Counted from the first letter of the stretch, positions 1,111 through 46,853 are shown. The stretch is DNA of 64,000 nucleotides from Parcubacteria group bacterium GW2011_GWA2_42_14 (GCA_000998135.1 LCCV01000004.1:85681-149680); one strand, 5' to 3'. The notes: generated from the sequence alone by a model not told the origin. A program made the numbers and translations.

Positions 1111-1204
1111 GCGATTGTTTTAAATTAAAGATTGCGTTAGTACGCTTTGCGTGTTCGCAAAAAATTATTCGCCCATACCACGGGGTATGGGCGATTTTCT
1201 CCGG

Positions 1205-1651: not shown

Positions 1652-1739
1652 TTGTTTATCTCCTTTTTTCGGACTTTTTACCTCTTAATTTATTGTATCA
1701 TTTTTAAAGCAGTATGTCAAATTTTATTTCTTCTCTTTT

Positions 1740-1789
1740 GGAAACGGGGTTTCCAAGTTACCGAGTTACCACTTGGAAACCCCGTTTCC
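1740..1789. promoter_or_regulatory. perfect 19-bp inverted repeat with 12-nt spacer (candidate operator) in divergent promoter region
   Basis: GGAAACGGGGTTTCCAAGT-taccgagttacc-ACTTGGAAACCCCGTTTCC read directly from the sequence. Lies between the divergent genes 1205-1651(-) and the YcaO gene(+). Overlaps the TTG-initiated N-terminal extension of the YcaO ORF. Confidence 0.6.
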
Positions 1790-1808
1790 ATATGATAACA
1801 TATTTATT

Positions 1809-3296
1809 ATGAAAAACAAGGATATTGAATTTTTGCGCACCGAAAGATTGCAGAATTATTGGGAAAATTACGCGCGCTCTTTTGAACCGCCTTTTTCCCG
1901 GTGGGGTTTTTTAATCGAGTTTTTGGTGAGAATTTTTCGGAACACGGCCATTGCTTTGGAGGGATTATGCGGCCGGAATATTTATGTCAAAAAAGCCGAT
2001 TCTGATTTTGACCGCATCCCCCCGCGGTTTCATTCTTTGGTTAATCTTCTTGGTCAGGAGGGCATATTGAAACAGGTTTTGTTCCCCAAGCCAATATCTG
2101 ACTGGCCGCGCATTCCGGCTTTGAACTTAAAATTCGGCAATGGCGCAAGCGCTTCCGGATACGCGTTGGATTGGGATATGGCCGCAACCAAAGCCGTGGC
2201 TGAACTTTTGGAATGGAGCGCGTTTGGCGGGCATGAGAAAAAAAATTTTATTTTCGGAACATGGAACGATTTAAAATCAAAAGGGGCGGTTGACCCGAAG
2301 CGTTTTATTGCTTTTTCCGAAAAACAGCTCGTCGAACCGGAATATGCCGGGCATCGTATAAATGATGGTTCTAAATTTAGCTGGACTAGATGTTTTTCTC
2401 TTTTTGACGGAAAAGAATATTGGGCGCCGGCGCAATTGGTTTTTTTTGGCAGTGAGATTTTTTCGGGAGAGCCGAAGATTCGTCAAACAACCACCAACGG
2501 CGGAGCGGCCGGAACTTCAATAACCATAGCGTTGGTTCACGGATTATTAGAGGCGATTGAGCGCGATGCTTTGATGATACATTGGCTGAACAAGATTACT
2601 CCGCCTCGTGTTGACCTGGAAAGTTTGGCAGAGTTTAACAATGAAAATATAAATAAAATTCTCGGCGAATATAAAAAATATGATATTGATTTTACGCTTT
2701 TGGACATAACTACTGATTTGGAAGTGCCTGTTTTTCTGACTGTTATCCGCGACCAGATACCAGGCAGGCCGGCTGTTTTTCTCGGGGCCGGAGCAGACCT
2801 TGACGCTGAATCGGCGATTATCCATTCTTTGTTGGAAGGTCTTCGCGCCGGATATTGGAGGGATGTTTCGGAAGAGCAAATTGCGGAAGTCAATAAAAAA
2901 GCGCCGTTAATTGAAAATCTTGAAGAAAGAAGGGCTTATTGGTGCGATAAGTCGCGAATGCCAGAAGCTGATTTTCTTTTAAACGGCCCGATGAAAAAAA
3001 TAAAGAGAAACGAATTTTGCGGCGCGGACAATCAAAAAAAACTGGAGCGGCTTAAGCAGATTCTAAGGGCGCGGGGAATGGAGGCCTACGGCGTTGATTG
3101 CACCACTAAAGCGGCCGAAGGCGCCGGCCTTAAAATTATAATGACATTGGTTCCGGAGCTTTATTATCTTTACCTTAACGAGCGTTTTAAGTATCTGGGA
3201 AGCAAACGATTATATGAAGCGCCGGTAAAAATGGGTGTTTTTAAACAGCCCAAAAAAGAAGAGGAGATGAATTCAATTCCTCATCCCATGCTTTAA
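1809..3296 (+). CDS. YcaO-domain protein (ATP-dependent cyclodehydratase family)
   Basis: Contains both YcaO signature blocks: FGNGASASGYALDWDMAATKAVAELLEWSA and TTNGGAAGTSITIALVHGLLEAIERDA. The start is probably the ATG at 1809 (MKNKDIEF...). The ORF-track start at 1773 is a TTG inside the palindrome. Confidence 0.8.
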   Translation: MKNKDIEFLRTERLQNYWENYARSFEPPFSRWGFLIEFLVRIFRNTAIALEGLCGRNIYVKKADSDFDRIPPRFHSLVNLLGQEGILKQVLFPKPISDWPRIPALNLKFGNGASASGYALDWDMAATKAVAELLEWSAFGGHEKKNFIFGTWNDLKSKGAVDPKRFIAFSEKQLVEPEYAGHRINDGSKFSWTRCFSLFDGKEYWAPAQLVFFGSEIFSGEPKIRQTTTNGGAAGTSITIALVHGLLEAIERDALMIHWLNKITPPRVDLESLAEFNNENINKILGEYKKYDIDFTLLDITTDLEVPVFLTVIRDQIPGRPAVFLGAGADLDAESAIIHSLLEGLRAGYWRDVSEEQIAEVNKKAPLIENLEERRAYWCDKSRMPEADFLLNGPMKKIKRNEFCGADNQKKLERLKQILRARGMEAYGVDCTTKAAEGAGLKIIMTLVPELYYLYLNERFKYLGSKRLYEAPVKMGVFKQPKKEEEMNSIPHPML

Positions 3297-3309
3297 TTGA
3301 TTTATTATT

Positions 3310-4815
3310 ATGATCCGCCATCTTAACTTAAGCGAAAAAACCGAAGAACGACTACAACAGGAAATCAAGTGGCTGCTTGATGAAAAATATGACGGGCATC
3401 GTACTTCGGAAGCAGAACAGGATATCGAACGGCTCAAGAAGGGTGAGCCGGTGGATTACGTTATCGGGCGTATGGATTTTTGCGGCTGCACTATTGATTT
3501 GTCTTTGCGTCCGTTGATTCCCCGGACCTCCACCGAATATTGGGCAGAGAAGACCATTGAATCAATAAAAAAAAGGGGATTAACAAGTCCCCGTTGCCTT
3601 GATATGTTTGCCGGCTCCGGCTGTGTCGGCATAGCGATTTTGAAACATATCCCCGGAGCGACGGTTGATTTTGTGGACATCGATCCGGACGCATTGAAGC
3701 AGATCGAGATCAATCTGAAGCTGAACGATATATCGCCGAATCGTGCGCGGATCATTCATTCCGATGTTTTTCAAAATGTGACCGGCATGTACGATATTAT
3801 TGCGTCTAATCCGCCATATTTTCCTCTTGGAGTTACGGGATTAATCGCAAAATTCAGTTTGGCATACGAATCGCATCATTTTTATTTTGCCGGCGAAGAC
3901 GGTCTTTCCTGCATCCGGCCGTTTTTACAGTCGGCTAGAAAGCACGTGAAGGAGGATGGAGAAATATGGCTTGATTATGCTTCGGGGCAGAAGTCCGACG
4001 TTGAGCGATTGCTTAGAGAATATGGCTATGCAAATTTTATTTTTTCTGATGAGGGGATGAAACAGAGGCAGGTCGTCATAATGTCTGACGCCGCATTTCA
4101 AGCAGCTGATCCATTTTTTGATTTTTTTGATGCTGATCGGCCGGTCGTTGATCCGCTTTTGCCGGAATGGAAAGAGGTGTCTTATAAGGATTATCCCAGG
4201 TCTACTTGTATAACCCTGCCTAAACCGGAATTGCCGCAAGATGTTTTACTGGAAACTGTTTTGGAGAAAAGGAAGAGTGAACGCGATTTTTCTGACAATC
4301 CTTTGCCGGAAAAAACAATAAGCTCGCTGCTTTATTGGAGCGTTGGTCTAATTAACAAAAATAAGAACATGGTCGAGTTTCAGTTAAGGCGGCCGTATCC
4401 TTCGGGCGGGGCAAGATATCAAGTGGAGATTTACGCGGTTCTTTTCAACGGAAGCGGATTGGAAAACGGTGTTTATCATTATAATACCAAAGAGCACGCG
4501 TTGGAATTGATTCAGCGGGCATCTTTTGAAAATATTCGTCAGGCCTTGCATTATGATTTTGCCAAAAAAGCGGCGGCATTGATACTTTTGTCTTTTGTTG
4601 GGGGCAGAACTTTGAAAAAATACGGGAACCTCGGCTATAAGCTTGGCCTGCTTGAGGGCGGGCACATAGGTCAAAATATTTATCTCGTAGGAACGGCTTT
4701 GGGTTTGGGGGTGTTGGCTTTGGGCGGAATGGATTATGAAGTTGTTCAAAAAGAGCTTGATTTGGGAGAGGATGAAACCGTGTTTTATCAACTGGCCATC
4801 GGATGGCCCAAATAG
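3310..4815 (+). CDS. fusion protein: PrmC/HemK-type protein-(glutamine-N5) methyltransferase domain + SagB-type (nitroreductase-fold) dehydrogenase domain
   Basis: Residues 1-255 carry the PrmC/HemK signatures GEPVDYVIGRMDFCG, LIPRTSTEY, DMFAGSGCVGIAIL, DIDPDAL and NPPY. Residues ~300-501 carry the SagB-type hallmark RRPYPSGGARYQVEIY plus a nitroreductase C-terminus (LLEGGHIGQNIYLVGTALGLG...GGMD). Single uninterrupted ORF, 13 nt downstream of the YcaO gene. Confidence 0.75.
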   Translation: MIRHLNLSEKTEERLQQEIKWLLDEKYDGHRTSEAEQDIERLKKGEPVDYVIGRMDFCGCTIDLSLRPLIPRTSTEYWAEKTIESIKKRGLTSPRCLDMFAGSGCVGIAILKHIPGATVDFVDIDPDALKQIEINLKLNDISPNRARIIHSDVFQNVTGMYDIIASNPPYFPLGVTGLIAKFSLAYESHHFYFAGEDGLSCIRPFLQSARKHVKEDGEIWLDYASGQKSDVERLLREYGYANFIFSDEGMKQRQVVIMSDAAFQAADPFFDFFDADRPVVDPLLPEWKEVSYKDYPRSTCITLPKPELPQDVLLETVLEKRKSERDFSDNPLPEKTISSLLYWSVGLINKNKNMVEFQLRRPYPSGGARYQVEIYAVLFNGSGLENGVYHYNTKEHALELIQRASFENIRQALHYDFAKKAAALILLSFVGGRTLKKYGNLGYKLGLLEGGHIGQNIYLVGTALGLGVLALGGMDYEVVQKELDLGEDETVFYQLAIGWPK

Positions 4816-4872
4816 CATTTGAAATGTTGTGGATAAGCAAAACTTGCCCTTTGTTAAGCCAGATGGTATTTT

Positions 4873-5003
4873 GAGACTGTAGAAAAACTCTTATAAGGAG
4901 CCAAAAAGTTATTTCCTGAGCCTGTCGAAGGATAACTTTTTGGCTTCTATATTCAAGGTATGGCTTCGATAAGCTCAGCCAATAACTGTTTTTCTACAGT
5001 CTC
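4873..5003. repeat. palindromic element, family D copy 1 (16-bp perfect terminal inverted repeats GAGACTGTAGAAAAAC)
   Basis: Terminal inverted repeat gagactgtagaaaaac / gtttttctacagtctc. An inner inverted repeat gccaaaaagttat / ataactttttggc. Shares ccaaaaagttaYttcctgagcYtgtcgaaggata and cgataaRctcag with the copies at 6955 and 10168. Confidence 0.7.
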
Positions 5004-5014
5004 ATTTTACAGAT

Positions 5015-5392
5015 ATGGTAAACAAAAAAGTCACAATTGAAGATTTGGCGGTAATGGTTCAAAAGGGTTTTAAGGATACGGCCCGAAAAGAAGAGATGGA
5101 TAAAAGATTTGACGAGGTGGATAAAAGATTTTTGGGCATAAACCAAGAATTAGTTGATCTTAAATCGGATGTTTCTTATCTTAAATCGCGGGTTGAAGAA
5201 ATAGGCCGCGTGCTTGAACGTCATGATGAGCTTTTGGAAGAACACTCCGAAGAATTAAAAATTATCCATAAAATATTGGATGATTTAACCGACCCCAAAA
5301 ATAAAAAACATATTGTAACTTATCAGGAGTTTTTGGCGCTGGAATCGCGGGTAATAGATTTAGAGAAAAAAGTTGGAGTACAAAAAATATAA
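5015..5392 (+). CDS. hypothetical coiled-coil protein
   Basis: 125 aa. Charged heptad-like sequence. No recognisable domain. Flanked by repeat families D and F. Confidence 0.45.
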   Translation: MVNKKVTIEDLAVMVQKGFKDTARKEEMDKRFDEVDKRFLGINQELVDLKSDVSYLKSRVEEIGRVLERHDELLEEHSEELKIIHKILDDLTDPKNKKHIVTYQEFLALESRVIDLEKKVGVQKI

Positions 5393-5412
5393 ACGTTGCC
5401 ACGGCAACGTTT
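5391..5412 (+). terminator. hairpin terminator aaacgttgcc-ac-ggcaacgttt
   Basis: 10-bp perfect stem starting at the stop codon of the 5015-5392 gene. Confidence 0.55.
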
Positions 5413-5480
5413 GAATTTCCGTCGCTCGCCCATCGCGAAAGTGAACTTTCGTGCGGGCTCGTTAGGAAATATAAGAAATG
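5412..5480. repeat. structured repeat family F copy 1 (gaatttccgtcgctcgccc...gggctcgttaggaaatataag)
   Basis: Related copy at 22875-22945. The inner hairpin differs between copies by compensatory changes (cgaaagt/actttcg versus gaaaac/gttttc). Confidence 0.5.
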
Positions 5481-5532
5481 CCACGGTATAAAAATAAATT
5501 ATATTAGCATTAGTAGATTCGCATCTATCTTC

Positions 5533-6942
5533 ATGAAAAAACTTCTAAATTCCGTTAAATTTATTTCTAAAGCGTTGTTGCTGATAATTCTTCTATTGGT
5601 CGGCTGGGCTTTTATTAATGTTGCCAACTTTATTAAAGGAAAAAAATCCGTGGAAAATAAATCCGGAGCGGGAGATCTTTTTGGGGCTGATAAGGCAAGC
5701 GCGGATATCCCATATATTTACGATTGTAATTGTCCGCATGTCGCGTATTTTGACGGCAAAGAATTTAAAATTGAGAATGATTTTCTTCCGGCAGAATTTA
5801 AAGCAATTGAACCCGGCTTCGCCGGTTATCTTTATGAACAAACCGTCCTGTCTCCTGATATGCTTAAGTTTTCTTCCATACCCCAAAAATATAACGGAGA
5901 ATTGTTCCTGCGCCTTCAGGAAATTGAGCTTGAGGAATCATTTATCCGGTGGATAAAACTTTTAAGAGTTGTTCATTCCGAAAAAGAAGAAATACTCATA
6001 GACGCCGTTAAAAAAGTTCCTTATCTGGTGTCAATAAATGAGGTTAAGGAAAAAATTCTGCTTCCGTCGGAGGTGATGCTGAATGAAAAAAGCTCTTTAG
6101 CCGGAATTTATCTTGCTAAGCAATTTTTATGGAATGATATTCCGGAAAGTAAAAATGACCTTTTTCAAAAAGGCGATTCCATTGATTTCACTTTTAAAAA
6201 TCTTCAAAAAGATAAAGACGTTTTATTGGTGGTGCGTTCCGTGTACCGCGATTGGATGGCCGGCGAGGAAGTAAAAAATAAGTATTCCTTTTCGGATTTT
6301 ACCCGTTTTCCGGTTTTGGCGAAAGTAGCGGCTTTGGCGGGACTTTATTTTCTTTCCGAACATTTGCCAACGGCAGGCGGTCTTGCGCTTTTGCCGTTTG
6401 TGGCCGGGGCAGGAAGCCAGTGCAAATCAATTGCTTTTTCCTATCGCAATAAAGAAGGCGGATTCAATCCTCTTGTAATCCAAAAACCAAGAAGTTTTAG
6501 GCAAAGTACCGAGGTTATTTCCATACCCAAAGAAGCGGTTGGAGAAGATGACTCTATGGTTATTCGCGCGGATTTTACCAAACGGCATCGTTTGAGTTTT
6601 GTCGGGACTCTGCAGGGATTAGAGATGAATGCCGCCGGAGCAGAAGAACTTTCCGTAAAAAATGCCCGGCATTCACGGCTTGGAGATGTAACATTGAAGA
6701 TTTCCGGTAAAGAAAAAAAAGTAACTCATTTGATTCCCGGGGATACGGTGGATGTAAGTTTTGAAGAACCGAGCCGCCTTCTTTTACAAGGACAGAAAGA
6801 AACGTATCTTTTTCAATCAGCCGGGTTTTATTCAGCACTTAGGCCGGAATACAAAAAAGCGGCCGGCAATTGGACGGAAAAACTTTCCTGCGAAGCTAAA
6901 GAGCATTATAAAAAACTTGTTGAAATTAACTCATATAGTTAA
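5533..6942 (+). CDS. hypothetical membrane-anchored protein
   Basis: 469 aa. One N-terminal transmembrane segment (ALLLIILLLVGWAFINV). No recognisable domain. Confidence 0.45.
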   Translation: MKKLLNSVKFISKALLLIILLLVGWAFINVANFIKGKKSVENKSGAGDLFGADKASADIPYIYDCNCPHVAYFDGKEFKIENDFLPAEFKAIEPGFAGYLYEQTVLSPDMLKFSSIPQKYNGELFLRLQEIELEESFIRWIKLLRVVHSEKEEILIDAVKKVPYLVSINEVKEKILLPSEVMLNEKSSLAGIYLAKQFLWNDIPESKNDLFQKGDSIDFTFKNLQKDKDVLLVVRSVYRDWMAGEEVKNKYSFSDFTRFPVLAKVAALAGLYFLSEHLPTAGGLALLPFVAGAGSQCKSIAFSYRNKEGGFNPLVIQKPRSFRQSTEVISIPKEAVGEDDSMVIRADFTKRHRLSFVGTLQGLEMNAAGAEELSVKNARHSRLGDVTLKISGKEKKVTHLIPGDTVDVSFEEPSRLLLQGQKETYLFQSAGFYSALRPEYKKAAGNWTEKLSCEAKEHYKKLVEINSYS

Positions 6943-7084: not shown

Positions 7085-8188
7085 TTGTTAATGATAAGAA
7101 TGAGCGAAAACAAAAATAAAAAAGTTAAAATTGTTTTAGCGGTTATTGCCGGTCTGGCGGTTATGGTTTTAGTTGCGTTTTTTTGGGGGAAGCAATGGTT
7201 TGCTTCCTCATATTTTAATCAAGGGCAGACTGCTTTTTTAAAAGGGGATTATGATGCGGCGGGGCAGTTGTTTGAAAAGTCCTTGAAGTTTAACGCAAAA
7301 AATCCGGAGCCGCATTTTTATTTGGGAAAAATCGCTTTAGGTAAGACTGTTTCCAGCGGCCCCCTTTTGTATCCCAATGCCGATTACGAGTCCGCGGTCG
7401 AGCATTTTGAACAATCGTTTTCTTTTGGTCTTGTTCAAAAAAACAAAGACGCTTATCTTGTATCACTTAATGATGCCGGTTTTTCTTATTACATGCTGAA
7501 ACAGTATGAAAAATCCATACCGCTTTTTCTAAAATACATTGAATTGAATCCAACCGGAGCTTTTACGGCGCGATATTTCGTGGCAACGGATTATCTCAAT
7601 CGTTCCAACAAACCAGAGGAAGCTTTGGATATTTTACTTCCGGCAGTTGATGCCGTTTCCGTCAATTCTCCGATTAACAGGCGGAATCTGTTTCGCGTAT
7701 ATTCGCTTCTTGGCCGGTTATATAGTTATTTCGCGGATGCCGTTAATACGGAAAAGTATGCGCGTCTGTCCATTGAAAGCGGCGTAGCCGGCAATAGAGA
7801 GCCGGAAATTCAAGTTGCTCACGTGCTCCTGTCTATTGTTTACGGCAGTAGGGGTGATTTTTCTTCGGCCATGGCGGAAATTAAAACGGCCAATGAATTG
7901 GCGGGTTCTGGCAGTGCGTACAATTGTTCTTTGGTCACAGCGTATTTTGCCGGTAAGAATTATTTTGACGCGGTTGAGGCGGCTAAAGCCGTTAAGCCGT
8001 CCAATTCTTATGGCTATTCCACCTGTTTGCAGATTTTAGGCGAATCTTATCTGGCAGAGGGCAATAAAATTGAGGCAAAAAAATATATGGAAGATTATCT
8101 GACCATGACCGATAAATTTAAAGATAAGAACATTTTTGTTTTCCGCAATCGCGAAAAGTTTGTTGATGAACTGGAGAATTTAAAATAA
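7085..8188 (+). CDS. TPR-repeat protein, membrane anchored
   Basis: N-terminal transmembrane segment followed by tetratricopeptide-like repeats (GDYDAAGQLFEKSLKFN...). Confidence 0.55.
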   Translation: MLMIRMSENKNKKVKIVLAVIAGLAVMVLVAFFWGKQWFASSYFNQGQTAFLKGDYDAAGQLFEKSLKFNAKNPEPHFYLGKIALGKTVSSGPLLYPNADYESAVEHFEQSFSFGLVQKNKDAYLVSLNDAGFSYYMLKQYEKSIPLFLKYIELNPTGAFTARYFVATDYLNRSNKPEEALDILLPAVDAVSVNSPINRRNLFRVYSLLGRLYSYFADAVNTEKYARLSIESGVAGNREPEIQVAHVLLSIVYGSRGDFSSAMAEIKTANELAGSGSAYNCSLVTAYFAGKNYFDAVEAAKAVKPSNSYGYSTCLQILGESYLAEGNKIEAKKYMEDYLTMTDKFKDKNIFVFRNREKFVDELENLK

Positions 8189-8190
8189 AG

Positions 8191-8985
8191 ATGTTAAAAA
8201 AAGATTTTTTAAAGTTTAGGGTTTTTATAATTTTTCTTGCCGCTTTTGCGGTTTTTGTTTTATTTTTTTATTTTCAGCCGGATATTGGGAATTTTTTATG
8301 GAAAGAGGCGGGATTTCCGCGGCTCGCTGTTTTTGTTTATCCGGATGCGAAGTTTGCCGTGAATATTGGCAATTATTATTTTAACGTCGGCGGTAAAGGG
8401 GATTATGATTTGGCGAGAGCCGAAAAATTTTTCCGCTACGCTTTGTTTTTGAATTCGCGTGTTCCTGATGCCTGGCACGAGCTCGCGCGTATTGATTTTT
8501 TGCGGGGAGATTTTGCCGGAGCTCTTGAAAAAATCAATAAGCAAATTGCGCTTCACGGTGATTTGTTTATGGCTTCGTTTTATATCCGCGGCCTGATTAA
8601 CGGATATGCCGGAAATTTTGACGAAGCCGAGCGTGATTTTAAAAAATTTCTGGAATGGGATAAAACTAACTGGGCTGTTCACAACGACCTTGCCTGGATT
8701 TATTTTCAAAAGGGGGATTATAAAAAAACCGAAGAAATTGCCAGAGCCGGCCTTGAATTTAATCGGGGAAATATCTGGTTGCTTATTTCTTTAGGAGTTG
8801 CCTTATTGAATCAGGAAAAAAAGGAAGAGGCGCGGAAAATTTTAGAAGAGGCCGGTATGGCCGCGACCCTGTTATCTGAAACGGATTGGCAGAAGGCCTA
8901 TCCGGGAAATAATCCTTTGTGGGCCAAAACCGGACTTGAAAAAATGAAAGAAACGATTGAATTTAATTTGGGTCTTGTTCGTTAG
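8191..8985 (+). CDS. TPR-repeat protein, membrane anchored
   Basis: N-terminal transmembrane segment followed by TPR-like repeats. The start is 3 nt after the stop of the upstream TPR gene. Confidence 0.55.
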   Translation: MLKKDFLKFRVFIIFLAAFAVFVLFFYFQPDIGNFLWKEAGFPRLAVFVYPDAKFAVNIGNYYFNVGGKGDYDLARAEKFFRYALFLNSRVPDAWHELARIDFLRGDFAGALEKINKQIALHGDLFMASFYIRGLINGYAGNFDEAERDFKKFLEWDKTNWAVHNDLAWIYFQKGDYKKTEEIARAGLEFNRGNIWLLISLGVALLNQEKKEEARKILEEAGMAATLLSETDWQKAYPGNNPLWAKTGLEKMKETIEFNLGLVR

Positions 8986-10358: not shown

Positions 10359-10430
10359 GCCGGAGTAGCTCAGTGGCAGAGCAACGCATTCGTAACGCGT
10401 AGGTCGTGGGTTCGACTCCCATCTCCGGCT
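10359..10430 (+). tRNA. tRNA-Thr (anticodon CGU)
   Basis: Cloverleaf read by eye: acceptor GCCGGAG/CTCCGGC, D arm GCTC-AGTGGCA-GAGC, anticodon loop TTCGTAA, T arm GTGGG-TTCGACT-CCCAT, discriminator T. One A-C mismatch at the base of the anticodon stem. No encoded CCA. Confidence 0.65.
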
Positions 10431-10467: not shown

Positions 10468-11677
10468 ATGGAAGAACTGAAGGAAAAACTCGCAGAATTG
10501 GAAAATAAAGCCCGCGAATTGGCGGACCGTCTTTGACTTGCCTAAAAAAGAGCTGGAAATTTCGGAAATTGAAAAAGCTATGGGTATTGCCGGATTTTGG
10601 GAAGATAAGAAGCGGGCGCGGGAAATGAGTCAGGAATTAGCCGTTCTTAAGAAAGAAAAAGAGCGTTGGGACGTATTTTTTGATGAAATAAAGACGCTCA
10701 AGGAATTGTTGGAAATTTTAGTTCACCCCGTTAGAAGTCCGGCAATGGCTTCTTTGAGCGGAAAGGAAGGCGAAGCCGACTTAGGCCTTAGTCCATCTTC
10801 CAACAAAAGCGCTTTTCAGACTTCTAATGGGGCAAAAGACGAGCAGATTATTAAGGAAATTGAGGAGAGAATTAAAATCATTGAAAAAAATTTAAAAATA
10901 GTTGAAATTGAAACATTATTTGCCGGAAAATACGATAAAGGCAACGCGGTTTTGTCGGTCTATGCCGGAGCCGGAGGAAAGGATTCGGAAGATTGGGCCG
11001 CACTTCTTTTGAGAATGTACCGCAGATTTGCCGAAAAAAAAGGATGGAAGTCGCGAACCCTTCACGAGCATTGGGGAGAATCCAGCGGGCCTGCCGGCTG
11101 GGGAATAAAAAACGCGACGATTTTAATAGAAGCGCCATTTTCCTACGGATATTTGAAAAATGAATCGGGTGTGCACCGGTTGGTGCGTATTTCGCCTTTT
11201 TCCAGTCAGAGTTTGCGCCATACTTCTTTTGCCTTGGTTGATGTCATGCCAGAATTTGTGGCTCCGGAAGAAGTTGAAATAAATCCTGATGATTTAAAAA
11301 TAGATTTTTTCCGTTCATCCGGTCCGGGAGGGCAGAACGTGAACAAGCGCGAAACCGCGGTGCGCATAACTCATCTTCCGACCGGTTTGCAGGCGGCCTC
11401 ACAATCCGAAAGAACACAGGAGAGAAATCGCGAAATTGCCATGGAACTTTTGCGTTCGCGCCTTTATGCTTTTAAGTTAAAACAACAGGAACAGGAAAGA
11501 CAGGGTGTACGCAAAGAAAAAGTCGCCATAGAATGGGGCTCGCAAATCCGTTCTTACGTAATGCATCCGTATCAAATGGTAAAGGACCATAGGACGGAGG
11601 TTGAAACATCAAATATTGAAAAAGTTTTGGATGGAGGGCTGGATGAGTTTATTGATGCAGAACTTCATAAATCATGA
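10468..11677 (+). CDS. prfB: peptide chain release factor 2 with programmed +1 ribosomal frameshift (CTT TGA C at 10531-10537)
   Basis: ORF1 (MEELKEKLAELENKARELADRL) ends at an in-frame TGA in the canonical CUU UGA C context. The +1 frame continues as DLPKKELEISEIEKAMG... and contains SPF-like and GGQ (SGPGGQNVNK) motifs. Carries an extra ~36 aa from the family B element. Confidence 0.85.
10726..10832. repeat. family B palindromic element inserted in-frame within prfB
   Basis: Terminal inverted repeats ccccgttagaagtcc / gacttctaatgggg. Encodes HPVRSPAMASLSGKEGEADLGLSPSSNKSAFQTSNG within the RF2 ORF. Confidence 0.7.
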
Positions 11678-40267: not shown

Positions 40268-41860
40268 ATGAATAAGATTAAATACATAATTGTTTTTATT
40301 ATCATTATTGGTGCGTGGGTTGCCTGGTATTATTTTTGGGGCAGGGAAAAACCTCTTGATTATGAAACTGTTAGCGCAAAACTCGGCAATATCAGTCAGG
40401 AAATAAATGTTACAGGAAAAATTATACCCTTGGACAAGGTGGAACTTGCTTTTGAAAAAGGCGGAAGAATAGTAAAAATAAATGCCGATGTCGGAGATAC
40501 CGTGTCCCGCGGCTGGATTCTGGCCGAACTTGATAATTCCGAACTTTTGGCAGAAATATCCCAGAAAAAATCGCAGGTTAAGGCCGAAGAAGCGCGTCTG
40601 GAAGAATTGAAAAGAGGAAGCCGTCCGGAAGAATTGAAAATATTGGAAGTAAAAGTTGAAAATGCCAAGGCCCTGCTTGAAGACGCTGAAAAAAATATGA
40701 TTGATAAAATTCAGGATTCTTATACCAAATCCGATGATGCCATAAGAAATAAAATTGACCAGCTTTACTCAAATCCCAGAACCAAATCTCCTACCCTGAC
40801 TGTTTATGACCCCGGCGCTTATCAAACCCGCCAAGAACTGGAAACCGGCAGGGTTGTTATTGAAGGTATTTTGGTAGAATGGAATTCCGAATTGGCGGGA
40901 CTCGTATCTTCTCAAGATTTGTCTCCCGCTCTTTTAAATGCCAAAACAAGAATCGGGGAAATAAATAAGTTTCTTGAAAAAATCGCGCTTTTAGTAAACG
41001 GTTTGACTCCGAGTTCTTCTCTTTCCCAGACAACTATTAATACTTATCGTTCCGATACGGCAACGGCAAGAGCCAATGTCAATACCGCGTTGGGAAATTT
41101 AACATCCGCGGATGAGAAAATGCGTTCGGCCAAATCCGCGGTGGTGCTTGCCGAAAATGAGCTTTTTTTGAAACAGGTCGGCGCTGCCGTTGAAACAATT
41201 TCTGCCAAAGAAGCGGAGTTGGAATACGCCCAGGCAAGTGTGGCAAGCGTTTTGGCACAGCTGCAAAAATTAGTTCTTCGCTCACCAATAAATGGGATTG
41301 TTTCAGGAACTTTTGCTAAAATCGGAGAAATTATCGCGGCCAATAAAGTCATTTTTTCTCTTATTTCCGACAACGAAGCTGAAGTCGAAGCGAATATTCC
41401 TGAAGTGGATATTGCCAAAATAAAAAAAGGGGATACGGCATTGATTACACTGGACGCTTACGGAGTTGATACGGAATTTGAGGCGGAACTTGGCATGATT
41501 GACCCGGCAGAAACAATTATTGAAGGCGTCGCGACTTATCGCGCGACATTTCAATTTCTTGTCCCGAGGACTTCGAGTGATCCTCAGTCGAACTCCGGAG
41601 TCGAGGGGGTGAAAAAAGACGGGCGCATTAAACCGGGCATGACCGCCAATATTAGCGTTAAGGGGCCGTCCAGAGAGAATGTTTTAGTTCTTCCACAGCG
41701 CGCCGTAATTTCTAAAAACGGAAATAGATTTGTCAGGGTTCTTAATGGCAAAGAAATCTTTGAAACGGAGATAAAAACCGGATTAAGGGGTTCGGATGGC
41801 AATGTGGAAATAACGGAAGGGTTGAAAGACGGGGACATAGTAATTTTGTTTCAAAAGTAG
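40268..41860 (+). CDS. efflux membrane fusion protein (HlyD/MacA-type periplasmic adaptor)
   Basis: N-terminal transmembrane segment. Biotinyl-lipoyl-like half-motifs (GKIIPLDKVELAF…, ITLDAYG). Long coiled-coil middle. C-terminal beta-barrel (GMTANISV). Followed by a MacB-type ATPase. Confidence 0.7.
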   Translation: MNKIKYIIVFIIIIGAWVAWYYFWGREKPLDYETVSAKLGNISQEINVTGKIIPLDKVELAFEKGGRIVKINADVGDTVSRGWILAELDNSELLAEISQKKSQVKAEEARLEELKRGSRPEELKILEVKVENAKALLEDAEKNMIDKIQDSYTKSDDAIRNKIDQLYSNPRTKSPTLTVYDPGAYQTRQELETGRVVIEGILVEWNSELAGLVSSQDLSPALLNAKTRIGEINKFLEKIALLVNGLTPSSSLSQTTINTYRSDTATARANVNTALGNLTSADEKMRSAKSAVVLAENELFLKQVGAAVETISAKEAELEYAQASVASVLAQLQKLVLRSPINGIVSGTFAKIGEIIAANKVIFSLISDNEAEVEANIPEVDIAKIKKGDTALITLDAYGVDTEFEAELGMIDPAETIIEGVATYRATFQFLVPRTSSDPQSNSGVEGVKKDGRIKPGMTANISVKGPSRENVLVLPQRAVISKNGNRFVRVLNGKEIFETEIKTGLRGSDGNVEITEGLKDGDIVILFQK

Positions 41861-41878
41861 TTAGAGACTATTTTAAAA

Positions 41879-41982
41879 GTCATTCTGAGGTAACAACCGA
41901 AGAATCTCAATCTGCGAAAATACTAATTTTTGAGATTCTTCACGGAGTTTACACTGAGCGAAGCGAATGTGTTCAGAATGAC
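41879..41982. repeat. hairpin repeat family A copy
   Basis: gtcattctgagg…gagattcttcac…gagcgaagcgaatgtgttcagaatgac. Confidence 0.65.
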
Positions 41983-42029
41983 GAAAAATAATTTTTGAAA
42001 CTTTTTAGACAGTCTTTTAGGCAACTTTT

Positions 42030-42749
42030 ATGGAATTAATAGAAATCCAGGATTTAAAAAAAATATACGGCGAAGGGGAAATGGAAACATCGGCGCTTGC
42101 CGGAATAAGTTTAAAAATAGCTAAAGGAGAATTCGTCGCGGTTATGGGGCCATCCGGCTCCGGCAAATCAACGCTTCTTCACATTCTTGGTTTTCTTGAC
42201 AGGCCCACTTCCGGCCTTTATTTTTTTGACGGCAAAAACATGCTTGATTACTCGGATGAGGAACTGGCGCGATTGAGAAATAAGAAGATGGGTTTTATAT
42301 TTCAGGCCTTTAATCTTCTTCCCCGGACATCCGTCTTGGAAAACGTAAAACTTCCGCTTATTTATTCCGATATCGCGTTAACGGAATGGAACGCGCTTGC
42401 GGAGTCGGCTATTGAGAAAGTTGGCTTAACTCACCGGATTCATCATCAGCCATCCCAGCTTTCCGGAGGAGAAAAACAAAGAGTTGCCATTGCCAGAGCT
42501 TTGGTTTTAAATCCACTGGTAATTTTCGCGGATGAGCCCACCGGCAATCTTGATTCAAAATCCGGCGGACAAGTTATGGAAGCGATTGCAAAGCTTCATG
42601 AGGACGGACATACTATTATATTGATTACACATGAGACCTATACCGCCGCCTATGCCCAAAGAATAATAGAACTTAAAGACGGCCTGATTGAAAAAGTTCG
42701 GTCTGTTTCGGAGCGTCACCGCACTTTTGACCATCAATTTATTAAATGA
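42030..42749 (+). CDS. MacB/LolD-type ABC transporter ATP-binding protein
   Basis: Walker [13 protein letters not shown]-loop. Signature [15 protein letters not shown]. Walker [13 protein letters not shown]-loop ILITHE. Confidence 0.8.
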
Positions 42750-42750
42750 T

Positions 42751-42903
42751 TTTGTTTTGCGAAGGCGTCTGCTTAATTGTCATTTGAATACTTTGAGAAA
42801 TTGGGATAATAATGGATTTCTGAAAGCGATTCGTTTCGGCACGCGAGGCGACCGAAGATATAAAAAAGAAGATATATTAAAATGTTTAAGAAAACGTATT
42901 TAA
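42751..42903 (+). CDS. small excisionase/HTH_17-like DNA-binding protein, putative (start uncertain)
   Basis: C-terminal LRNWDNNGFLKAIRFGTRGDRRYKKEDILKCLRK resembles excisionase-family HTH (…G.lpa.k.G.r.yRf..edi..wl). The ORF overlaps the ATPase 3' end. No ATG found, so a TTG start is assumed. Confidence 0.3.
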   Translation, partial: FVLRRRLLNCHLNTLRNWDNNGFLKAIRFGTRGDRRYKKEDILKCLRKRI

Positions 42904-42912
42904 CAAAAAAAC

Positions 42913-43416
42913 ATGATTCCCAAAGAGAACAACTTTGCATTTATAGACAGCCAAAATGTGTACAAAGGGACACGGCGGGATTTAGGTTGGGAATTGGACT
43001 GGGTCCGTTTTCGTGTGTATTTGAAACACAAGTACGACATCACTAACGCTTATTTGTTTATCGGCTTTATGCCGGAACATAACGACATTTATGATGAACT
43101 CCAAAAAGCAGGATTTATTTTGAAATTTAAGCCCGTATTGCCCAACGGAAAAGACGGCGTGAAAGGAAACATTGATGCTGACCTGGTATTACAAGCCATG
43201 ATTGACTATCCAAACTACGACAAAGCAGTAATTGTTTCCAGCGACGGTGATTTCTATTCACTTGCCCGCCACTTGTACGATAACAAAAAACTTTTGGCGG
43301 TTTTAAGTCCGCACCGGAAAACATGCTCGTCTCTTTTAAGAAAATCGGCAAAGGACAAAATGGTCTATATGGACAATCTAGAAAACAAGCTATCAAAAAG
43401 AAAAAGCACCGCGTAG
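42913..43416 (+). CDS. NYN/LabA-like domain protein
   Basis: FAFIDSQNVYKG…GNIDADLVLQAM…AVIVSSDGDFYSL matches the NYN (LabA) catalytic-residue pattern. Confidence 0.6.
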   Translation: MIPKENNFAFIDSQNVYKGTRRDLGWELDWVRFRVYLKHKYDITNAYLFIGFMPEHNDIYDELQKAGFILKFKPVLPNGKDGVKGNIDADLVLQAMIDYPNYDKAVIVSSDGDFYSLARHLYDNKKLLAVLSPHRKTCSSLLRKSAKDKMVYMDNLENKLSKRKSTA

Positions 43417-43614
43417 GGACGGAACCCATACGAAGTGCTTTTTCATAGGAATACTTAAAGTATAGCAAGTACTTGCCAAAAGTCAATAGTTTTATCAACA
43501 CCTCCAACAAATATCCGATAAAATCCGTATATATATAACCAAAAATATCCGATAATATGGCTAATTTATCCGGGGTTTGGTTTAACAGAAAAAATTAAAT
43601 TAAAAAGTTAAAAC

Positions 43615-44157
43615 ATGAAAGACATAGACAATTTATATTATGACGCCATGGAATTGCTTGACGACGGGCGAAGCGGAGCGAAAAAAGCGGAGAAATTACT
43701 TTTGAAAGCGGTTGCAATAGACCCGCATAGCCCGCAAACATATATTGGACTAGTTCAAATTTATGGAGTTATCAAAAATAAAAAGAAAATAGAGGAGTGC
43801 GTTAAAAAAGCTTATACTGAAACAGTCAAAAAAATTCCAGTTTGGCCGAAGACAATGTTTTGGGGCGATATGGACAATCGAGCGTATATGAGGGCTGTTC
43901 AATATCGGGCTGACCCTTATGCTGATAAAGGAGAAAAGGAGAAAGCCATAGAATTATATAGACTGCTTTTGCGGTTGAATCCGAATGACAATCAAGGCGT
44001 CAGATATACTCTTTCCGGGGTATACGCCGGTATTGGCGGTGAAAAAATAAATGAAATGTTTGACGAAGGAAACGCAAAACAAAATTGGGATAAGCTGGAA
44101 AATTTAGTAAAAGAGCAAAACACCAAACACAAATTTTGGAAAGAACCAAAATATTAG
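43615..44157 (+). CDS. hypothetical TPR-like helical protein
   Basis: Helical repeats (AEKLLLKAVAIDPHSPQTYIGL…, AIELYRLLLRLNPNDNQG). Confidence 0.4.
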   Translation: MKDIDNLYYDAMELLDDGRSGAKKAEKLLLKAVAIDPHSPQTYIGLVQIYGVIKNKKKIEECVKKAYTETVKKIPVWPKTMFWGDMDNRAYMRAVQYRADPYADKGEKEKAIELYRLLLRLNPNDNQGVRYTLSGVYAGIGGEKINEMFDEGNAKQNWDKLENLVKEQNTKHKFWKEPKY

Positions 44158-44686
44158 AATATAAACCCCATTCAGCCGAAATTCTGCAGGAATAAGTCGC
44201 GCGGCGGATTGTCAGCCGGGGGTGGAAATAGATTTGCTTTTAAATTTAAATTGCGTTATCGTTAGAATTTTGTATGACGATATTTCTAGATTTAAACTCA
44301 CAGAAAGTTCTGTGGTTTAATTTCATCATACTTTCCCTGAGTATAATTTAAGTGGTAGCGAACTTGCTGTTGCTTGGACGGCCCATATTTCTGAACAAAT
44401 GGGATATAATCCTTGGGTTATAATTCATCCTGATGAAAAAAAACTCATAGAATTTTGCACAAACAAGAGGTTGACTTTTACTGTTTAAGCGATCGAAAAA
44501 ATGGTAATATGCCACAGAATGTGCAAGAAATTATCAGTAGTGTAATTTCCAACAAAAACGGCGTAGAAACTCAGATAATTTCAAGTAGTGATTATTCGTA
44601 ATTTTCTACCTCAATTTAGCTAAAACCAAGAAACCAGCTCTATGTAGTTGGTTTTTTGAGGTAAAATATGTGATAATAGAATAACT

Positions 44687-44932
44687 ATGCCCTCTTTAAA
44701 CTGGATAGGAAAAGAGAAAATTGTGAATCACGATAAGGATGTGCCGTTTCGGCTGATGCGAAAGAATAAGAAATACTCGCTTGGGGAAAGCGAGAATTTA
44801 ATTTTGGAGGGGGATAATTTGGGGGCATTAAAGGCATTGGTGCCTTTTTATTATGGAAAAATAAAATGTATTTATATTGATCCACAGAAGAATAGTACTG
44901 ATAGCGTTATTAATAAAGTTTCTAAATTATAA
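44687..44932 (+). pseudogene. N-terminal remnant of an N6-adenine/N4-cytosine DNA methyltransferase (Type III Mod / Type II beta-class like)
   Basis: LNWIGKEKIV…NLILEGDNLGALKALVPFYYGKIKCIYIDPQKNS corresponds to the conserved N-terminus of Mod methylases (…NLLIxGDNLxALKxL…IDLIYIDPPYNTG). The DPPY motif is degenerated to DPQK and the ORF stops after 81 aa. Confidence 0.5.
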
Positions 44933-45462
44933 AACCCAATCCCTCGAACAGAAAAAGAAACTAAAAGATGGTAATACAGCGAAGAAACGGTGTCAGGTAC
45001 TCTTTTTGACTCCACAAAAAACCAATAAAACTATATTACACCACGCCAACAACATACTAACAAACTGGAGTTTGTTGGTATGTTGTGAAGTAAAAAAATT
45101 AACAAAATAAATTTATGGAAAAATAAGCCGAAGTCCGCGGCTGCGAAAAACAAATTGACCAGCTCGTCTATGGTTTGATAAACTCACCACAGGTAAACTC
45201 TACGGCCTCCCGCCTTCAATAAACTTTTGGCGGGCAGGCACCCCGGAGGAAATTAAAATTGTTGAAAATGAAAATAGATAATTTTAATCAGCAAAAATTA
45301 TGACCGGAAGCAATCAATATTTTTATGAAGATATTGAGACTGCCCATATAAAGTTCTTGCGCTTATTTTGAGTATAGCATATAATTTAAACCAAAGGTAC
45401 CCAAATATGGGTACCAATATGGCACAAACCATCAATATATCTATGGCGAATGTCATTTAATC

Positions 45463-46062
45463 ATGGAAAAATACTATATTTTAGACTTAATGAGATCCAA
45501 AAAGACTGTCTTCACTTTTAAAGACCTTATTTTGTTTTGGGGAAAATCTGACGTGAATTTTGTAAAGAAAAAAATTTACCGCTACGTGAAGGCGGGCAAA
45601 ATGAATTCTATCCGTAGAGGCATTTACTCCAAGGACAAGGACTATAATAAATACGAACTGGCTACAAAAATATATACACCCTCATATGTCAGCCTGGAGA
45701 CCGCGCTAGGCGCGTCCGGAGTTACTTTCCAGCTGTATGGTCAGATTTTTGTCGTATCATACACCACAAAGGAAATCGAGTGCGACGGACAGAAATATTC
45801 TTACAAAAAAATCAAAGATATCATTCTCACCAATCAAATCGGCATAGAGTCGAGGGAAAATTACAGCATTGCTTCGCCCGAACGCGCCTTTTTAGATGTT
45901 ATTTATCTTAACAAAGATTATCATTTTGATAATCTATCAGCTTTGAATTGGGAAAAAGTACGCGAAATTTTACCCATTTACGGCGGCAACAAACGAATGG
46001 CAAAAATGGTAAAAATGTACCACAAGGCGTTTTCCGCCGAAGTCACCAGTCCTTCGCAGTAG
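45463..46062 (+). CDS. AbiEi-family antitoxin/transcriptional regulator
   Basis: N-terminal AbiEi_4-like pattern (FTFKDLILFWGKSDVNFVKKKIYRYVKAGKMNSIRRGIYS). Positioned immediately upstream of the AbiEii gene. Confidence 0.55.
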   Translation: MEKYYILDLMRSKKTVFTFKDLILFWGKSDVNFVKKKIYRYVKAGKMNSIRRGIYSKDKDYNKYELATKIYTPSYVSLETALGASGVTFQLYGQIFVVSYTTKEIECDGQKYSYKKIKDIILTNQIGIESRENYSIASPERAFLDVIYLNKDYHFDNLSALNWEKVREILPIYGGNKRMAKMVKMYHKAFSAEVTSPSQ

Positions 46063-46127
46063 CTCTGCTACGGAGAATGGAGATCCGCCTCCGGCGGAAA
46101 GATTGCCAATTAGAAAATAATAACCGC

Positions 46128-46835: not shown

Positions 46836-46853
46836 ACTCGCATACACTTATAT

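Follow-up and report, generated by a model that had tools for sequence, protein, structure and literature searches.

The window analysed here (the whole stretch of DNA, 64 kb in length) contains a gene for a YcaO cyclodehydratase, an open reading frame (ORF) that joins a HemK/PrmC-type methyltransferase to a SagB-type dehydrogenase, a third gene coding for a membrane protein, here called M, and genes for two TPR proteins (Table 1). The first two ORFs and the 13-nt gap between them both exist as the first-pass annotation had described them.

Table 1. Positions of the features of the locus, counted from the first nucleotide of the window
Feature	Position	Strand	Remarks
Perfect 20-bp inverted repeat	1739..1790	.	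arms 1739-1758 and 1771-1790, 12-nt loop
YcaO cyclodehydratase, SagD/TOMM type	1809..3296	+	495 aa from ATG 1809
HemK–SagB fusion ORF	3310-4815	+	501 aa; begins 13 nt after the YcaO stop at 3296
HemK/PrmC-type N5-glutamine methyltransferase domain	3310..4077	+	fusion aa 1-256; TIGR00536 and motifs
SagB-type FMN dehydrogenase, complete	4078..4815	+	fusion aa 257-501; TIGR03605 and alignment
Gene-3 protein M	5533..6942	+	469 aa; conserved neighbour of YcaO-SagB
M spacer 1, candidate modified segment	5638..5733	+	aa 36-67, ..FGADKASADIPYIYDCNC, then PHVAYFDG
M loop 2, candidate modified segment	6394..6444	+	aa 288-304, PFVAGAGSQCKSIAFSY
TPR protein 1, membrane-anchored	7085..8188	+	367 aa; directly downstream of M, conserved
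TPR protein 2, membrane-anchored	8191..8985	+	264 aa; downstream of TPR protein 1, conserved

The YcaO protein and its upstream region

The YcaO protein matches Pfam PF02624 in a profile search (E 6.9e-59) and passes TIGR03604, the model of SagD-type TOMM cyclodehydratases, with 244.6 bits against a cut-off of 219.25, showing that its earlier identification as a YcaO was correct. It possesses the ATP/Mg-binding Glu motifs and the Pro-rich C-terminus expected of a TOMM D-protein, and the family C-terminus is a conserved PHP(M/F)L. The N-terminal extension of ~95 aa has an alpha/beta layout (beta-alpha-alpha-beta-alpha-beta), which is not that of a canonical RRE, and it is without an E1-like domain. 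Translation likely starts at ATG 1809 (MKNKD...), in agreement with the start in the closest relative, L099; the TTG at 1773, which had been listed as the start, falls within the inverted repeat, and ATG 1809 was preferred to it.

The nearest solved structures for the YcaO/SagB pair are cyanobactin/microcin heterocyclases and azoline oxidases, and the catalytic motifs of both enzymes are invariant. Pfam and NCBIfam scans of the cluster genes (YcaO, fusion, M and the two TPR proteins) and of the ORFs that flank them revealed neither an E1-like (C) nor an Ocin-ThiF-like (F) partner with an RRE, which bears out the absence noted earlier, and none appears among the Pfam families listed for the called genes in the relatives' loci. 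YcaO and SagB are an E1-less TOMM-type pair, i.e., an ATP-dependent cyclodehydratase and an FMN dehydrogenase that retains the Lys-Tyr motif.

The inverted repeat lies 19 nt upstream of the YcaO ATG, between ycaO and a strong promoter-like site on the minus strand (1720-1692), and its RNA fold has a z-score of -5.4. It was first described as a perfect 19-bp repeat that suggests dedicated regulation. The repeat is real, but its length is 20 bp, and the regulatory reading did not hold: the repeat is absent upstream of ycaO in L099 and matches no Rfam family. Since it is specific to the window's genome, it gives no support to a conserved and dedicated control of the cluster.

The HemK–SagB fusion and its methyltransferase domain

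The N-terminal part of the fusion scores 130.9 against TIGR00536 (hemK_fam, cut-off 115.5) and 153.4 against the PrmC equivalog model TIGR03534, which is under the cut-off of 199.1. Against the latter model the fusions score 144-168 and the stand-alone CPR PrmCs 166-210, most of these also falling under the cut-off. The GEPxDY, LIPRxxTE, FAGSGCxG (SAM) and NPPY motifs are invariant in the alignment. Thus, the proposed PrmC/HemK type stands at the level of the family model, the equivalog cut-off being missed, and the PrmC catalytic residues are present. The domain retains the N-terminal "EIxWLLxEKYxG" helical domain common to CPR PrmCs, and the fused-type clade shows an EPHH behind NPPY and no longer has the KDQYGKWRY hairpin at the C-terminus. 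The C-terminal part scores 121.6 against TIGR03605 (cut-off 78.4) over aa 336-498, showing that this domain is indeed SagB-type, as first assigned, and more than a generic nitroreductase. The residues R321, R325, K437 and Y438 of the RxxxR and Lys-Tyr motifs are invariant (RKSER and KY in the window), and the nearest solved structures are 3eo7, the CyaGox/ThcOx-type oxidases, BmdC and McbC (PDB sequence matches). The fusion is real, a HemK/PrmC-type methyltransferase standing head-to-tail with a complete SagB.

It is scarcely credible that the fusion arose through misassembly or a frameshift, the two domains really being separate genes. The SagB domain opens at an in-frame Met (aa 257, MSDAAF..DPFFDFFDADRP), at the exact start codon position of the relatives' stand-alone SagB genes, so that separate translation of SagB is conceivable in the window. 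However, this junction Met is found in one of the eight aligned fusions, the window's only, and the identical ORF occurs in three NCBI MAGs. Full-length, unbroken fusions of 466-505 aa are present in at least seven independent contigs from different studies, and conservation at 45-58% identity across these assemblies argues against an artefact. The fusion had not been recognised from described systems, and a literature search likewise found no published description of it.

The fusion is not what defines the system: the closest relative, L099, whose YcaO is 85% identical, has the same cluster with a stand-alone SagB (237-250 aa), as have L096, L105, L123 and all outgroups. Most triads of YcaO, SagB and M have no HemK. 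In a neighbour-joining (NJ) tree the fused-type HemK clade is monophyletic, with the stand-alone PrmC from a Sungiibacteriota MAG as its sister. Within one Sungbacteria sub-clade, the PrmC/HemK of that lineage gave rise to a methyltransferase domain that became joined, in frame, to the N-terminal end of SagB, itself otherwise complete. Because the clade is sister to Sungbacteria PrmC, the domain has a single origin, and it was later lost or swapped by recombination several times, the window's closest relative included; recombination breakpoints are visible, with at least three losses within the sub-clade. The HemK domain is an optional, lineage-specific add-on that was repeatedly lost or replaced. 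Elsewhere the triad is accompanied by a class-I methyltransferase with a dimerisation/wHTH domain (L136, L138), a TehB-like methyltransferase (L141) or further methyltransferases (L135, L007). The occurrence of three unrelated methyltransferase families with the triad in different lineages suggests that methylation belongs to the pathway.

The HemK domain may instead be the housekeeping release-factor methyltransferase PrmC, which was adjacent to SagB and then translationally fused to it, sharing no substrate with YcaO/SagB, in an arrangement that is neutral or at most co-regulatory; we place this somewhat below an even chance. The conserved PrmC/HemK motifs, the CPR-type N-terminal domain and the orthologue-like sister relationship all point in this direction, as does a HemK-only gene of the fused-type clade that persists at loci lacking both YcaO and SagB (L130, L132). 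The 64-kb window holds no second HemK gene, nor a second SagB or YcaO; the UniRef name of the protein is PrmC; and JACPHB01, the sole fusion-bearing species genome in a GTDB scan, appears once among the best 80 of 452 PrmC-like loci. However, it would be surprising if the only PrmC had been lost repeatedly within the sub-clade, unless the genome has a further copy, and the clade-specific EPHH, the missing hairpin and the lower PrmC-model scores speak against this reading, as do the unrelated methyltransferases at the same triad in other lineages. Sungbacteria-type stand-alone PrmCs exist, none of them tied to a fusion-bearing genome.

The membrane protein M and the TPR genes

The conserved unit in Sungbacteria and related Parcubacteria is YcaO, SagB and the ~470-aa M, usually followed by the two membrane-anchored TPR proteins. 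The M and TPR genes, which the first-pass annotation overlooked, are the strongest lead to the substrate. M adjoins SagB in every YcaO- or fusion-anchored locus that reaches the downstream gene (L001, L004, L007-L010, L096, L141) except L097. The triad is kept in the rearranged loci L121, L124, L135 and L126, and in the distant loci L136-L139, where the other neighbours differ and M is 23-25% identical. Mobile genes (HicAB, AbiEii) sometimes lie between the two TPR genes in relatives. The PADLOC defence models gave no match for YcaO, M or the TPR proteins, only generic methyltransferase matches for the fusion (mad2, Type II MTase), and a marginal DruC match for a 125-aa ORF (E 6e-4).

M begins with a TM helix, followed by an invariant A-x-A-D motif and a disordered spacer. 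Then come two CBM-like beta-sandwich domains, between which lie a hydrophobic helical hairpin and, after it, a variable loop, and the protein ends in C-terminal helices. As Lys is abundant on both sides of TM1, the topology is ambiguous; the charge distribution and the CBM-like folds suggest that the spacers and domains are extracytoplasmic. As YcaO needs ATP, a modification of such segments would have to precede membrane insertion. Spacer 1 is disordered and hypervariable among orthologues, and it is Cys/Gly/Ser-rich in several YcaO-linked relatives, although the enrichment of Cys in YcaO-linked proteins falls short of significance (p = 0.14); the spacer sequences are CAGGGGGCGCGNAG in L136 and CGCNSSGEGCSNGSSSG in L138. 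Loop 2 is longer in YcaO-linked than in YcaO-less proteins (median 19 vs. 15, p = 5e-4) and contains more Cys+Ser+Thr (6 vs. 3, p = 0.002), kinship being ignored in both comparisons, and it is plain in the most distant YcaO-linked M proteins (L136-L139). The gene-3 protein of L097 is different from M but carries its N-terminal module; its TM helix and "AQADVP" are followed by a stretch of 55 aa that is rich in Gly/Cys/Ser and resembles microcin B17, and then by an intein-N/Hint domain (27.5 against TIGR01445, cut-off 24.5).

The proposed substrate and comparison with known pathways

Across eight loci, the small ORFs that are conserved around the cluster are all shadows of long genes, in line with the first impression that no small precursor is visible. 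A survey of about 30 loci, with flanks of up to 6-10 kb, yielded no candidate precursor, and core-like Cys/Ser/Thr-rich sequences occur only inside the gene-3 membrane proteins. The reading we prefer, at about even odds, is azol(in)e formation, with or without N-methylation, on the Cys/Ser/Thr-rich spacers of M, with HemK either tailoring the same substrate or remaining a release-factor methylase. YcaO would convert Cys/Ser/Thr residues to azolines, which SagB would oxidise to azoles, and M itself would be the most likely substrate. Within M, the modification may fall on the disordered spacer that follows the TM/AxAD module and is rich in Cys/Ser/Thr/Gly, on the variable loop ahead of the second beta-domain, or on both, and the conserved N-terminal module of M may take the role of the leader. 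HemK may place an N-methyl on a Gln/Asn-type amide or an amine of the same substrate, and the unrelated methyltransferases at the locus may perform N-methylation in other lineages; alternatively, the HemK domain may simply stay the cell's release-factor methylase.

A minimal RiPP (LAP-like) cluster with its small precursor encoded elsewhere, the other proposal of the first-pass annotation, is less likely but possible. M and the TPR proteins would then act in export or anchoring, or as a receptor or immunity module, or would be a mere neighbouring cell-envelope operon. This would agree with the occurrence of M-TPR-TPR beside glycan-biosynthesis genes without YcaO/SagB (in no fewer than seven loci the 6 kb upstream contain neither of the two enzymes) and with the CBM-like, probably extracytoplasmic domains of M. 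The YcaO-less loci also count against M as the substrate, as do the plain loop 2 of L136-L139 and the absence of an identified RRE or E1-like domain. In Sungbacteria, the slot between an epimerase gene and M takes up varying insertions, with a kinase-methyltransferase in L106 and HemK alone in L130, so that part of the YcaO/SagB–M adjacency could be positional, and the distant loci resemble biosynthetic clusters (ATP-grasp enzyme, methyltransferase, SDR, CapK-like ligases). However, an unlinked precursor is at odds with a triad that stays intact through rearrangements and down to 23% identity of M, and with the microcin-like stretch that L097 carries inside the gene-3 protein itself, and the flanks of the loci surveyed yielded no candidate.

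The first-pass annotation had also offered a translation factor or ribosomal protein, e.g., RF2, as the target of Gln methylation together with backbone cyclodehydration/oxidation, which now seems very improbable. The methyltransferase is of the HemK type, prfB (RF2) lies inside the window (10538-11677), and YcaO proteins reportedly have links to ribosomal proteins. However, RF2 is close to the cluster in no relative, HemK is missing altogether from most of the triads, and the conserved neighbours are envelope proteins: the steady link is to a membrane protein and not to translation genes.

Modification of M, the preferred reading, would draw on the chemistry of the TOMM/LAP synthetases (McbBCD of microcin B17, SagBCD of streptolysin S, BalhCD/BcerB), which share the SagD-type YcaO passing TIGR03604, the SagB-type FMN dehydrogenase with its Lys-Tyr motif, and the expected conversion of Cys/Ser/Thr via azoline to azole. 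In contrast to these synthetases, the window's cluster has no E1-like/Ocin-ThiF (C/F) protein with an RRE and no small leader-core precursor gene, it has a 470-aa membrane protein and TPR proteins as obligate neighbours, and in one sub-clade HemK is fused to the dehydrogenase. In the cyanobactin enzymes LynD/TruD/PatD, the LynD-type N-terminal E1-like/RRE region spans ~470 aa, whereas the window's YcaO has only ~95 extra residues, and the cluster lacks the PatA/PatG proteases and a cyanobactin precursor. In ThcOx-type oxidases, too, further domains are fused ahead of the nitroreductase fold; those of ThcOx/CyaGox are RRE-like, whereas the window's SagB carries what looks like an active methyltransferase. 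That domain resembles PrmC/HemK proteins in its GEPxxY, LIPRxxTE, SAM-binding and NPPY motifs, in passing the family model, and in the CPR PrmC N-terminal motif and the sister position to Sungbacteria PrmC, but differs from them in its sub-cut-off equivalog score, in its lost hairpin and added EPHH, and in being fused to SagB and dispensable for the cluster.

Plantazolicin-type LAP pathways possess a dedicated N-methyltransferase (PznL/BamL), azole formation and SAM-dependent N-methylation thus acting on one product. By analogy, the same logic may apply here, and the recurrence of methyltransferases at the triad fits this picture, although the plantazolicin methyltransferase is of another family and unfused, and its clusters encode C/D/B proteins and a small precursor. 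Partner-independent or protein-modifying YcaOs, e.g., the bottromycin YcaOs and the McrA-thioamidating YcaO-TfuA, form a further comparison; the window's cluster has no TfuA, and its YcaO scores 80.9 against TIGR03266, far under the cut-off of 365. Since the cluster includes a SagB dehydrogenase, azoles are more likely products than thioamides or amidines. This groundwater Sungbacteria (CPR) genome carries a putatively azole-forming YcaO/SagB pair of the known peptide-modifying kind, in an undescribed variant form.

YcaO and the HemK–SagB fusion protein

The locus is best filed as a variant of the azole-forming TOMM/LAP machinery that lacks an E1-like partner and a small precursor gene and is linked to a membrane protein of the envelope; in one Sungbacteria sub-clade, SagB carries a fused methyltransferase domain derived from PrmC. 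The source of the window is a groundwater MAG of Candidatus Sungbacteria (Parcubacteria/CPR). The two ORFs described in the first-pass annotation, i.e., ycaO and, 13 nt on, a 501-aa ORF, are present as described, and its assignment of YcaO, HemK/PrmC-type and SagB domains was confirmed throughout by profile searches. YcaO passes the cut-off of TIGR03604 (SagD/TOMM cyclodehydratase; 244.6 bits vs. 219.25), and the fusion passes those of the HemK family model (130.9 vs. 115.5) and the SagB dehydrogenase model (121.6 vs. 78.4). Against the PrmC equivalog model the fusion scores 153, below the cut-off of 199, as do most stand-alone CPR PrmCs (166–210).

All catalytic blocks of E. coli PrmC are covered by its alignment with the fusion. 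Across eight full-length fusions of 45–58% identity, the alignment retains GEPxDY, LIPRxxTE, FAGSGCxG and NPPY in the methyltransferase half, and, in the SagB half, the Lys-Tyr pair known from TOMM dehydrogenases together with the FMN motif RxxxR, showing that the fusion is real and under selection rather than an assembly artefact. A protein 100% identical to it is deposited for RIFCSPLOWO2_12_FULL_41 and for two further MAGs; the accessions are OHA13214.1 (Sungbacteria RIFCSPLOWO2_12_FULL_41_11), OGZ97968.1 and KKS38289.1 (GW2011_GWA2_42_14). In public records it goes by 'PrmC', 'protoporphyrinogen oxidase' or 'hypothetical', none of which captures the SagB half. The HemK–SagB fusion had been suggested to be new; a literature search found neither a YcaO/HemK fusion nor this cluster of CPR bacteria described in any paper.

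The solved YcaOs closest in sequence belong to the cyanobactin heterocyclases (TruD, MusD and LynD), with comparison values of 36.3 for LynD (398 residues aligned), 32–35 for methanogen YcaOs, 29.2 for McbD and 22.1 for E. coli YcaO. A small alpha/beta extension makes up the first ~95 residues, and the protein has no E1-like domain. For the SagB half, the closest solved relatives are an Anabaena nitroreductase (3eo7), azoline oxidases of the CyaGox/ThcOx type, BmdC and McbC. From family membership it follows that YcaO would make azolines, which SagB would then oxidise.

Features of the window around the cluster and elsewhere, with coordinates and strand
Feature	Coordinates	Strand	Remarks
Terminator-like hairpin	1169-1194		bidirectional; with the 148-aa ORF
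Lipoprotein-like ORF, 148 aa	1205-1651	-	signal peptide + Cys; between epimerase gene and ycaO
Promoter-like site	1720-1692		strong; with the 148-aa ORF
YcaO ORF	1809-3296		ATG 1809 is the likely start, used in the closest relative
HemK–SagB fusion ORF, 501 aa	3310-4815	+	
Coiled-coil ORF, 125 aa	5015-5392	+	between fusion and M
Palindromic hairpin	5391-5412		next to the 125-aa ORF
Membrane protein M (gene 3), 469 aa	5533-6942	+	
Secreted/anchored protein, 323 aa	9133-10104	+	downstream of TPR2; acidic double-disulfide CxDGxDNDGDG-type repeats
tRNA gene	10359-10430		just upstream of prfB
prfB (RF2)	10538-11677		
HlyD-ABC-MacB/FtsX efflux genes	40268-49374		

Fused and unfused SagB, and the role of the HemK domain

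The order YcaO, fusion, M (~470–490 aa) and two TPR proteins of ~360 aa and ~270 aa is kept in all seven independent fusion-bearing contigs, and the genes upstream of YcaO vary among them. About 30 clusters of YcaO homologues compare with eight fusion clusters. The fusion is rare: among the best 80 of 452 PrmC-like loci, retrieved from GTDB species genomes with a CPR PrmC alignment, a fusion with YcaO occurs once. The fusion, on which the first-pass annotation centred, does not define the system: the HemK domain is optional, and a stand-alone SagB occupies the same cluster in L096, in L099 and in all outgroups. GCA_016186325.1 is among the unfused relatives. L096 carries the nearest YcaO on a long contig (62% identity) and a 237-aa SagB. 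L099, the closest relative of the window, has a YcaO of 85% identity, an M of about 80% and a SagB of 249 aa, which begins MSDQFFNFFDADRP at the point that matches an in-frame Met of the window fusion (aa 257, MSDAAFQAADPFFDFFDADRP). The two DNAs are 86–87% identical over ycaO and the 3′ half of sagB, and this homology breaks for ~1.1 kb, a stretch that takes in the HemK domain along with the initial third of SagB; a recombination cassette therefore distinguishes the window from L099.

The ycaO–sagB spacer of L099 (3240-3390) holds an imperfect inverted repeat at the recombination breakpoint (~25 nt per arm, CATTGCGAGCGACC...GCTCGCAATG), and L099 SagB has an in-frame 24-aa insertion at aa ~97–120, ERWAEGLFGKTSSVIASEAKQSNF, whose 'IASEAKQS' looks as if a similar repeat had been copied and translated, which suggests MITE-like elements.

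Neighbour-joining trees of YcaO and SagB are congruent, with one Sungbacteria sub-clade that mixes fused and unfused states and outgroups that are all unfused. The HemK domains are monophyletic in their own tree, and their sister is a stand-alone PrmC from a Sungiibacteriota MAG. Taken together, the trees point to a single fusion event, after which the HemK domain was lost or replaced at least three times. No YcaO was found near P0029 and P0030, the closest stand-alone SagB relatives, whose neighbourhoods are unrelated.

Whether the HemK domain still acts as the housekeeping PrmC or has been recruited as a tailoring methyltransferase is, in our judgement, about evenly balanced. A housekeeping role accords with the retention of every PrmC motif, including one in the N-terminal helical domain that is common to CPR PrmCs, with the sister position to Sungbacteria PrmC, and with the survival of a HemK-only gene of the fused-type clade directly upstream of M in L130 and L132, where YcaO and SagB are gone. 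In addition, no second HemK was found in the 64-kb window, and the fusion-bearing genome appears once among the best 80 PrmC-like loci of the GTDB scan. Recruitment for tailoring is suggested by the recurrence of at least three unrelated methyltransferase families at the triad (YcaO, SagB and M) in other lineages, by a clade-specific EPHH after NPPY, a lost C-terminal hairpin and lower PrmC-model scores, and by the repeated loss of the domain. The window has no PrmC after MacB, in contrast to the HlyD-ABC-MacB-PrmC order of Wildermuthbacteria, which is weak evidence for the absence of a second copy. Neither the names of cluster members nor a search with the Sungiibacteriota PrmC linked a second prmC to the genome of the window. 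The efflux genes of the window are split by ~5 kb of extra genes and followed by VIT1 and VKOR homologues, not PrmC; in a Wildermuthbacteria genome they are contiguous, with PrmC next.

The proximity of the RF2 gene, which had been put forward as a link to the PrmC-type domain, is coincidental, because the linkage is not conserved and relatives have no release-factor gene near the cluster. The RF2 ORF starts at a TTG and reads through in one frame; towards its N terminus it contains a low-complexity insertion of ~40 aa (HPVRSPAMASLSGKEGEADLGLSPSSNKSAFQTSNG...).

The membrane protein M and its neighbourhood

A metagenome scan with the M family yielded 43 loci, and the triad is the robust association of the locus. 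YcaO and SagB adjoin M despite a changed orientation (L121, L124, L135) or order (L126), and also in the distant loci L136–L139, where M is only 23–25% identical and the other neighbours encode an ATP-grasp enzyme, a class-I methyltransferase, an SDR and a TolB-like protein; in L141 the order is SagB(-), YcaO(+), a TehB-like methyltransferase and M. M-TPR-TPR is also found without YcaO and SagB in at least seven loci with 6 kb of upstream sequence, next to an epimerase, glycosyltransferases and an aminotransferase, and thus YcaO and SagB look like accessories to the M module, not the reverse. In L106, a YcaO-less Sungbacteria locus, a 445-aa fusion of an AAA_33/KTI12-like kinase and a class-I methyltransferase (4583-5920) lies between the epimerase gene and M.

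The M family comprises ~250 clusters at 50% identity, and M has no Pfam or NCBIfam match. An AF2 model (65 sequences, pLDDT 84.3, pTM 0.78) predicts, from N to C terminus, a TM helix (aa 2–34), a disordered spacer (aa 36–65), two beta-sandwich domains separated by a pair of short hydrophobic helices and then a poorly ordered loop, and finally C-terminal helices. Conserved are A-x-A-(D/E) ~20 residues past the TM helix and, after a hypervariable spacer, an invariant [ST/C][TC]P[FH][LV]A.F[DN]G. M and the two membrane-anchored TPR proteins together look like a cell-envelope, glycan-related module. The TPR1/TPR2 junction is an insertion hot spot in relatives (L001 12205-12685; L010 5402-6022; L008 4402-4662), holding a HicAB toxin-antitoxin pair, an AbiEii-like gene or an 86-aa ORF.

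The epimerase gene is directly divergent from ycaO in L001, L004 and L096, so the 148-aa ORF, which has no family match, and the inverted repeat look like a window-specific insertion. This repeat, first reported as 19 bp long and as a sign of dedicated regulation, is real, with a length of 20 bp; its role as a conserved operator was rejected, as the closest relative lacks it and no Rfam family matches it. The 125-aa ORF (weak DUF7201 match, marginal PADLOC DruC match) is missing from all relatives examined, in which ~90–170 nt separate the fusion or SagB from M. The slot of the 323-aa protein is filled in relatives by unrelated large surface proteins of 354 aa, 434 aa and 706 aa (the last a Kelch/CARDB protein). 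The cluster matches no known defence system in the PADLOC model set.

The candidate substrate and its implications

As the first-pass annotation had proposed, the cluster lacks an E1-like partner and a nearby small precursor ORF: domain scans of the cluster genes and flanks found no E1-like or RRE protein, and in eight loci all conserved small ORFs were shadow ORFs. Several features point to the gene-3 protein itself as the substrate. At the distant locus L097, gene 3 encodes a 261-aa protein with the N-terminal module of M (TM helix and AQADVP), followed by 'VSCGGGCGGGGGDSGEPHNDCSSDCASTSEGGNSS...GGSGGC', a stretch resembling the core of microcin B17, and then by an intein-N/Hint domain. Spacer 1 (aa 36–67 in the M of the window) contains 'CAGGGGGCGCGNAG' in the YcaO-linked M of L136 and 'CGCNSSGEGCSNGSSSG' in that of L138. 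Loop 2 (aa 288–304 in the M of the window) has a median length of 19 in 20 distinct YcaO-linked M proteins vs. 15 in six YcaO-less ones (p = 5e-4), and a median Cys+Ser+Thr count of 6 vs. 3 (p = 0.002), both comparisons being uncorrected for phylogeny. However, loop 2 is plain in L136–L139, which counts against M as the substrate, and that its spacers are modified is a tentative reading, to which we give somewhat less than an even chance. The TM helix of M has Lys-rich flanks on both sides, and the TPR anchors are clearly N-in; if the M helix is N-in as well, the spacer and loop segments are extracytoplasmic, so modification would precede insertion.

Other sequence features of M were considered and set aside. 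In YcaO-linked M, spacer 1 tends to hold more Cys, but not significantly so (p = 0.14), and inspection of the sequence listing showed no relation between YcaO presence and the residue that precedes the invariant Pro, either Cys or Thr. The GGQ-like GxQ[CS] of loop 2 was rejected as a HemK target, as its Gln also occurs in the SagB-only L105 and in YcaO-less loci; this Gln is present in all fused loci and is Met in the HemK-less L096.

In a combined reading that is possible, if on balance unlikely, TOMM chemistry would act here on a full-length structural membrane protein, not on a small secreted peptide. On this view, azol(in)es would be installed by YcaO and SagB, and N-methyl groups would come from a methyltransferase that is either fused or encoded nearby. 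Both changes would fall on low-complexity Cys/Ser/Thr/Gly spacers of an envelope protein, namely M, which has CBM-like domains, or, at L097, the Hint-domain protein, whose N-terminal fragment could be freed by self-cleavage. The conserved TM and AxAD module may serve as a built-in leader, allowing recognition without an RRE, and the modification might make a tether between membrane and wall rigid or protease-proof in these ultra-small CPR bacteria.

The cluster would add to YcaO biochemistry an azole synthetase of the Candidate Phyla Radiation that is compact and needs no E1, and in such a system substrate recognition must differ from the RRE paradigm. Its fused, unfused and HemK-only variants form a natural series for dissecting the contribution of the methyltransferase; should the HemK domain have been recruited from PrmC, a methylase of translation factors would clearly have been put to new use in tailoring. 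With the gene-3 protein as substrate, azole-forming post-translational modification would extend from RiPPs to an envelope protein of ~470 aa and would suggest a role in the cell-surface biology of episymbiotic bacteria.
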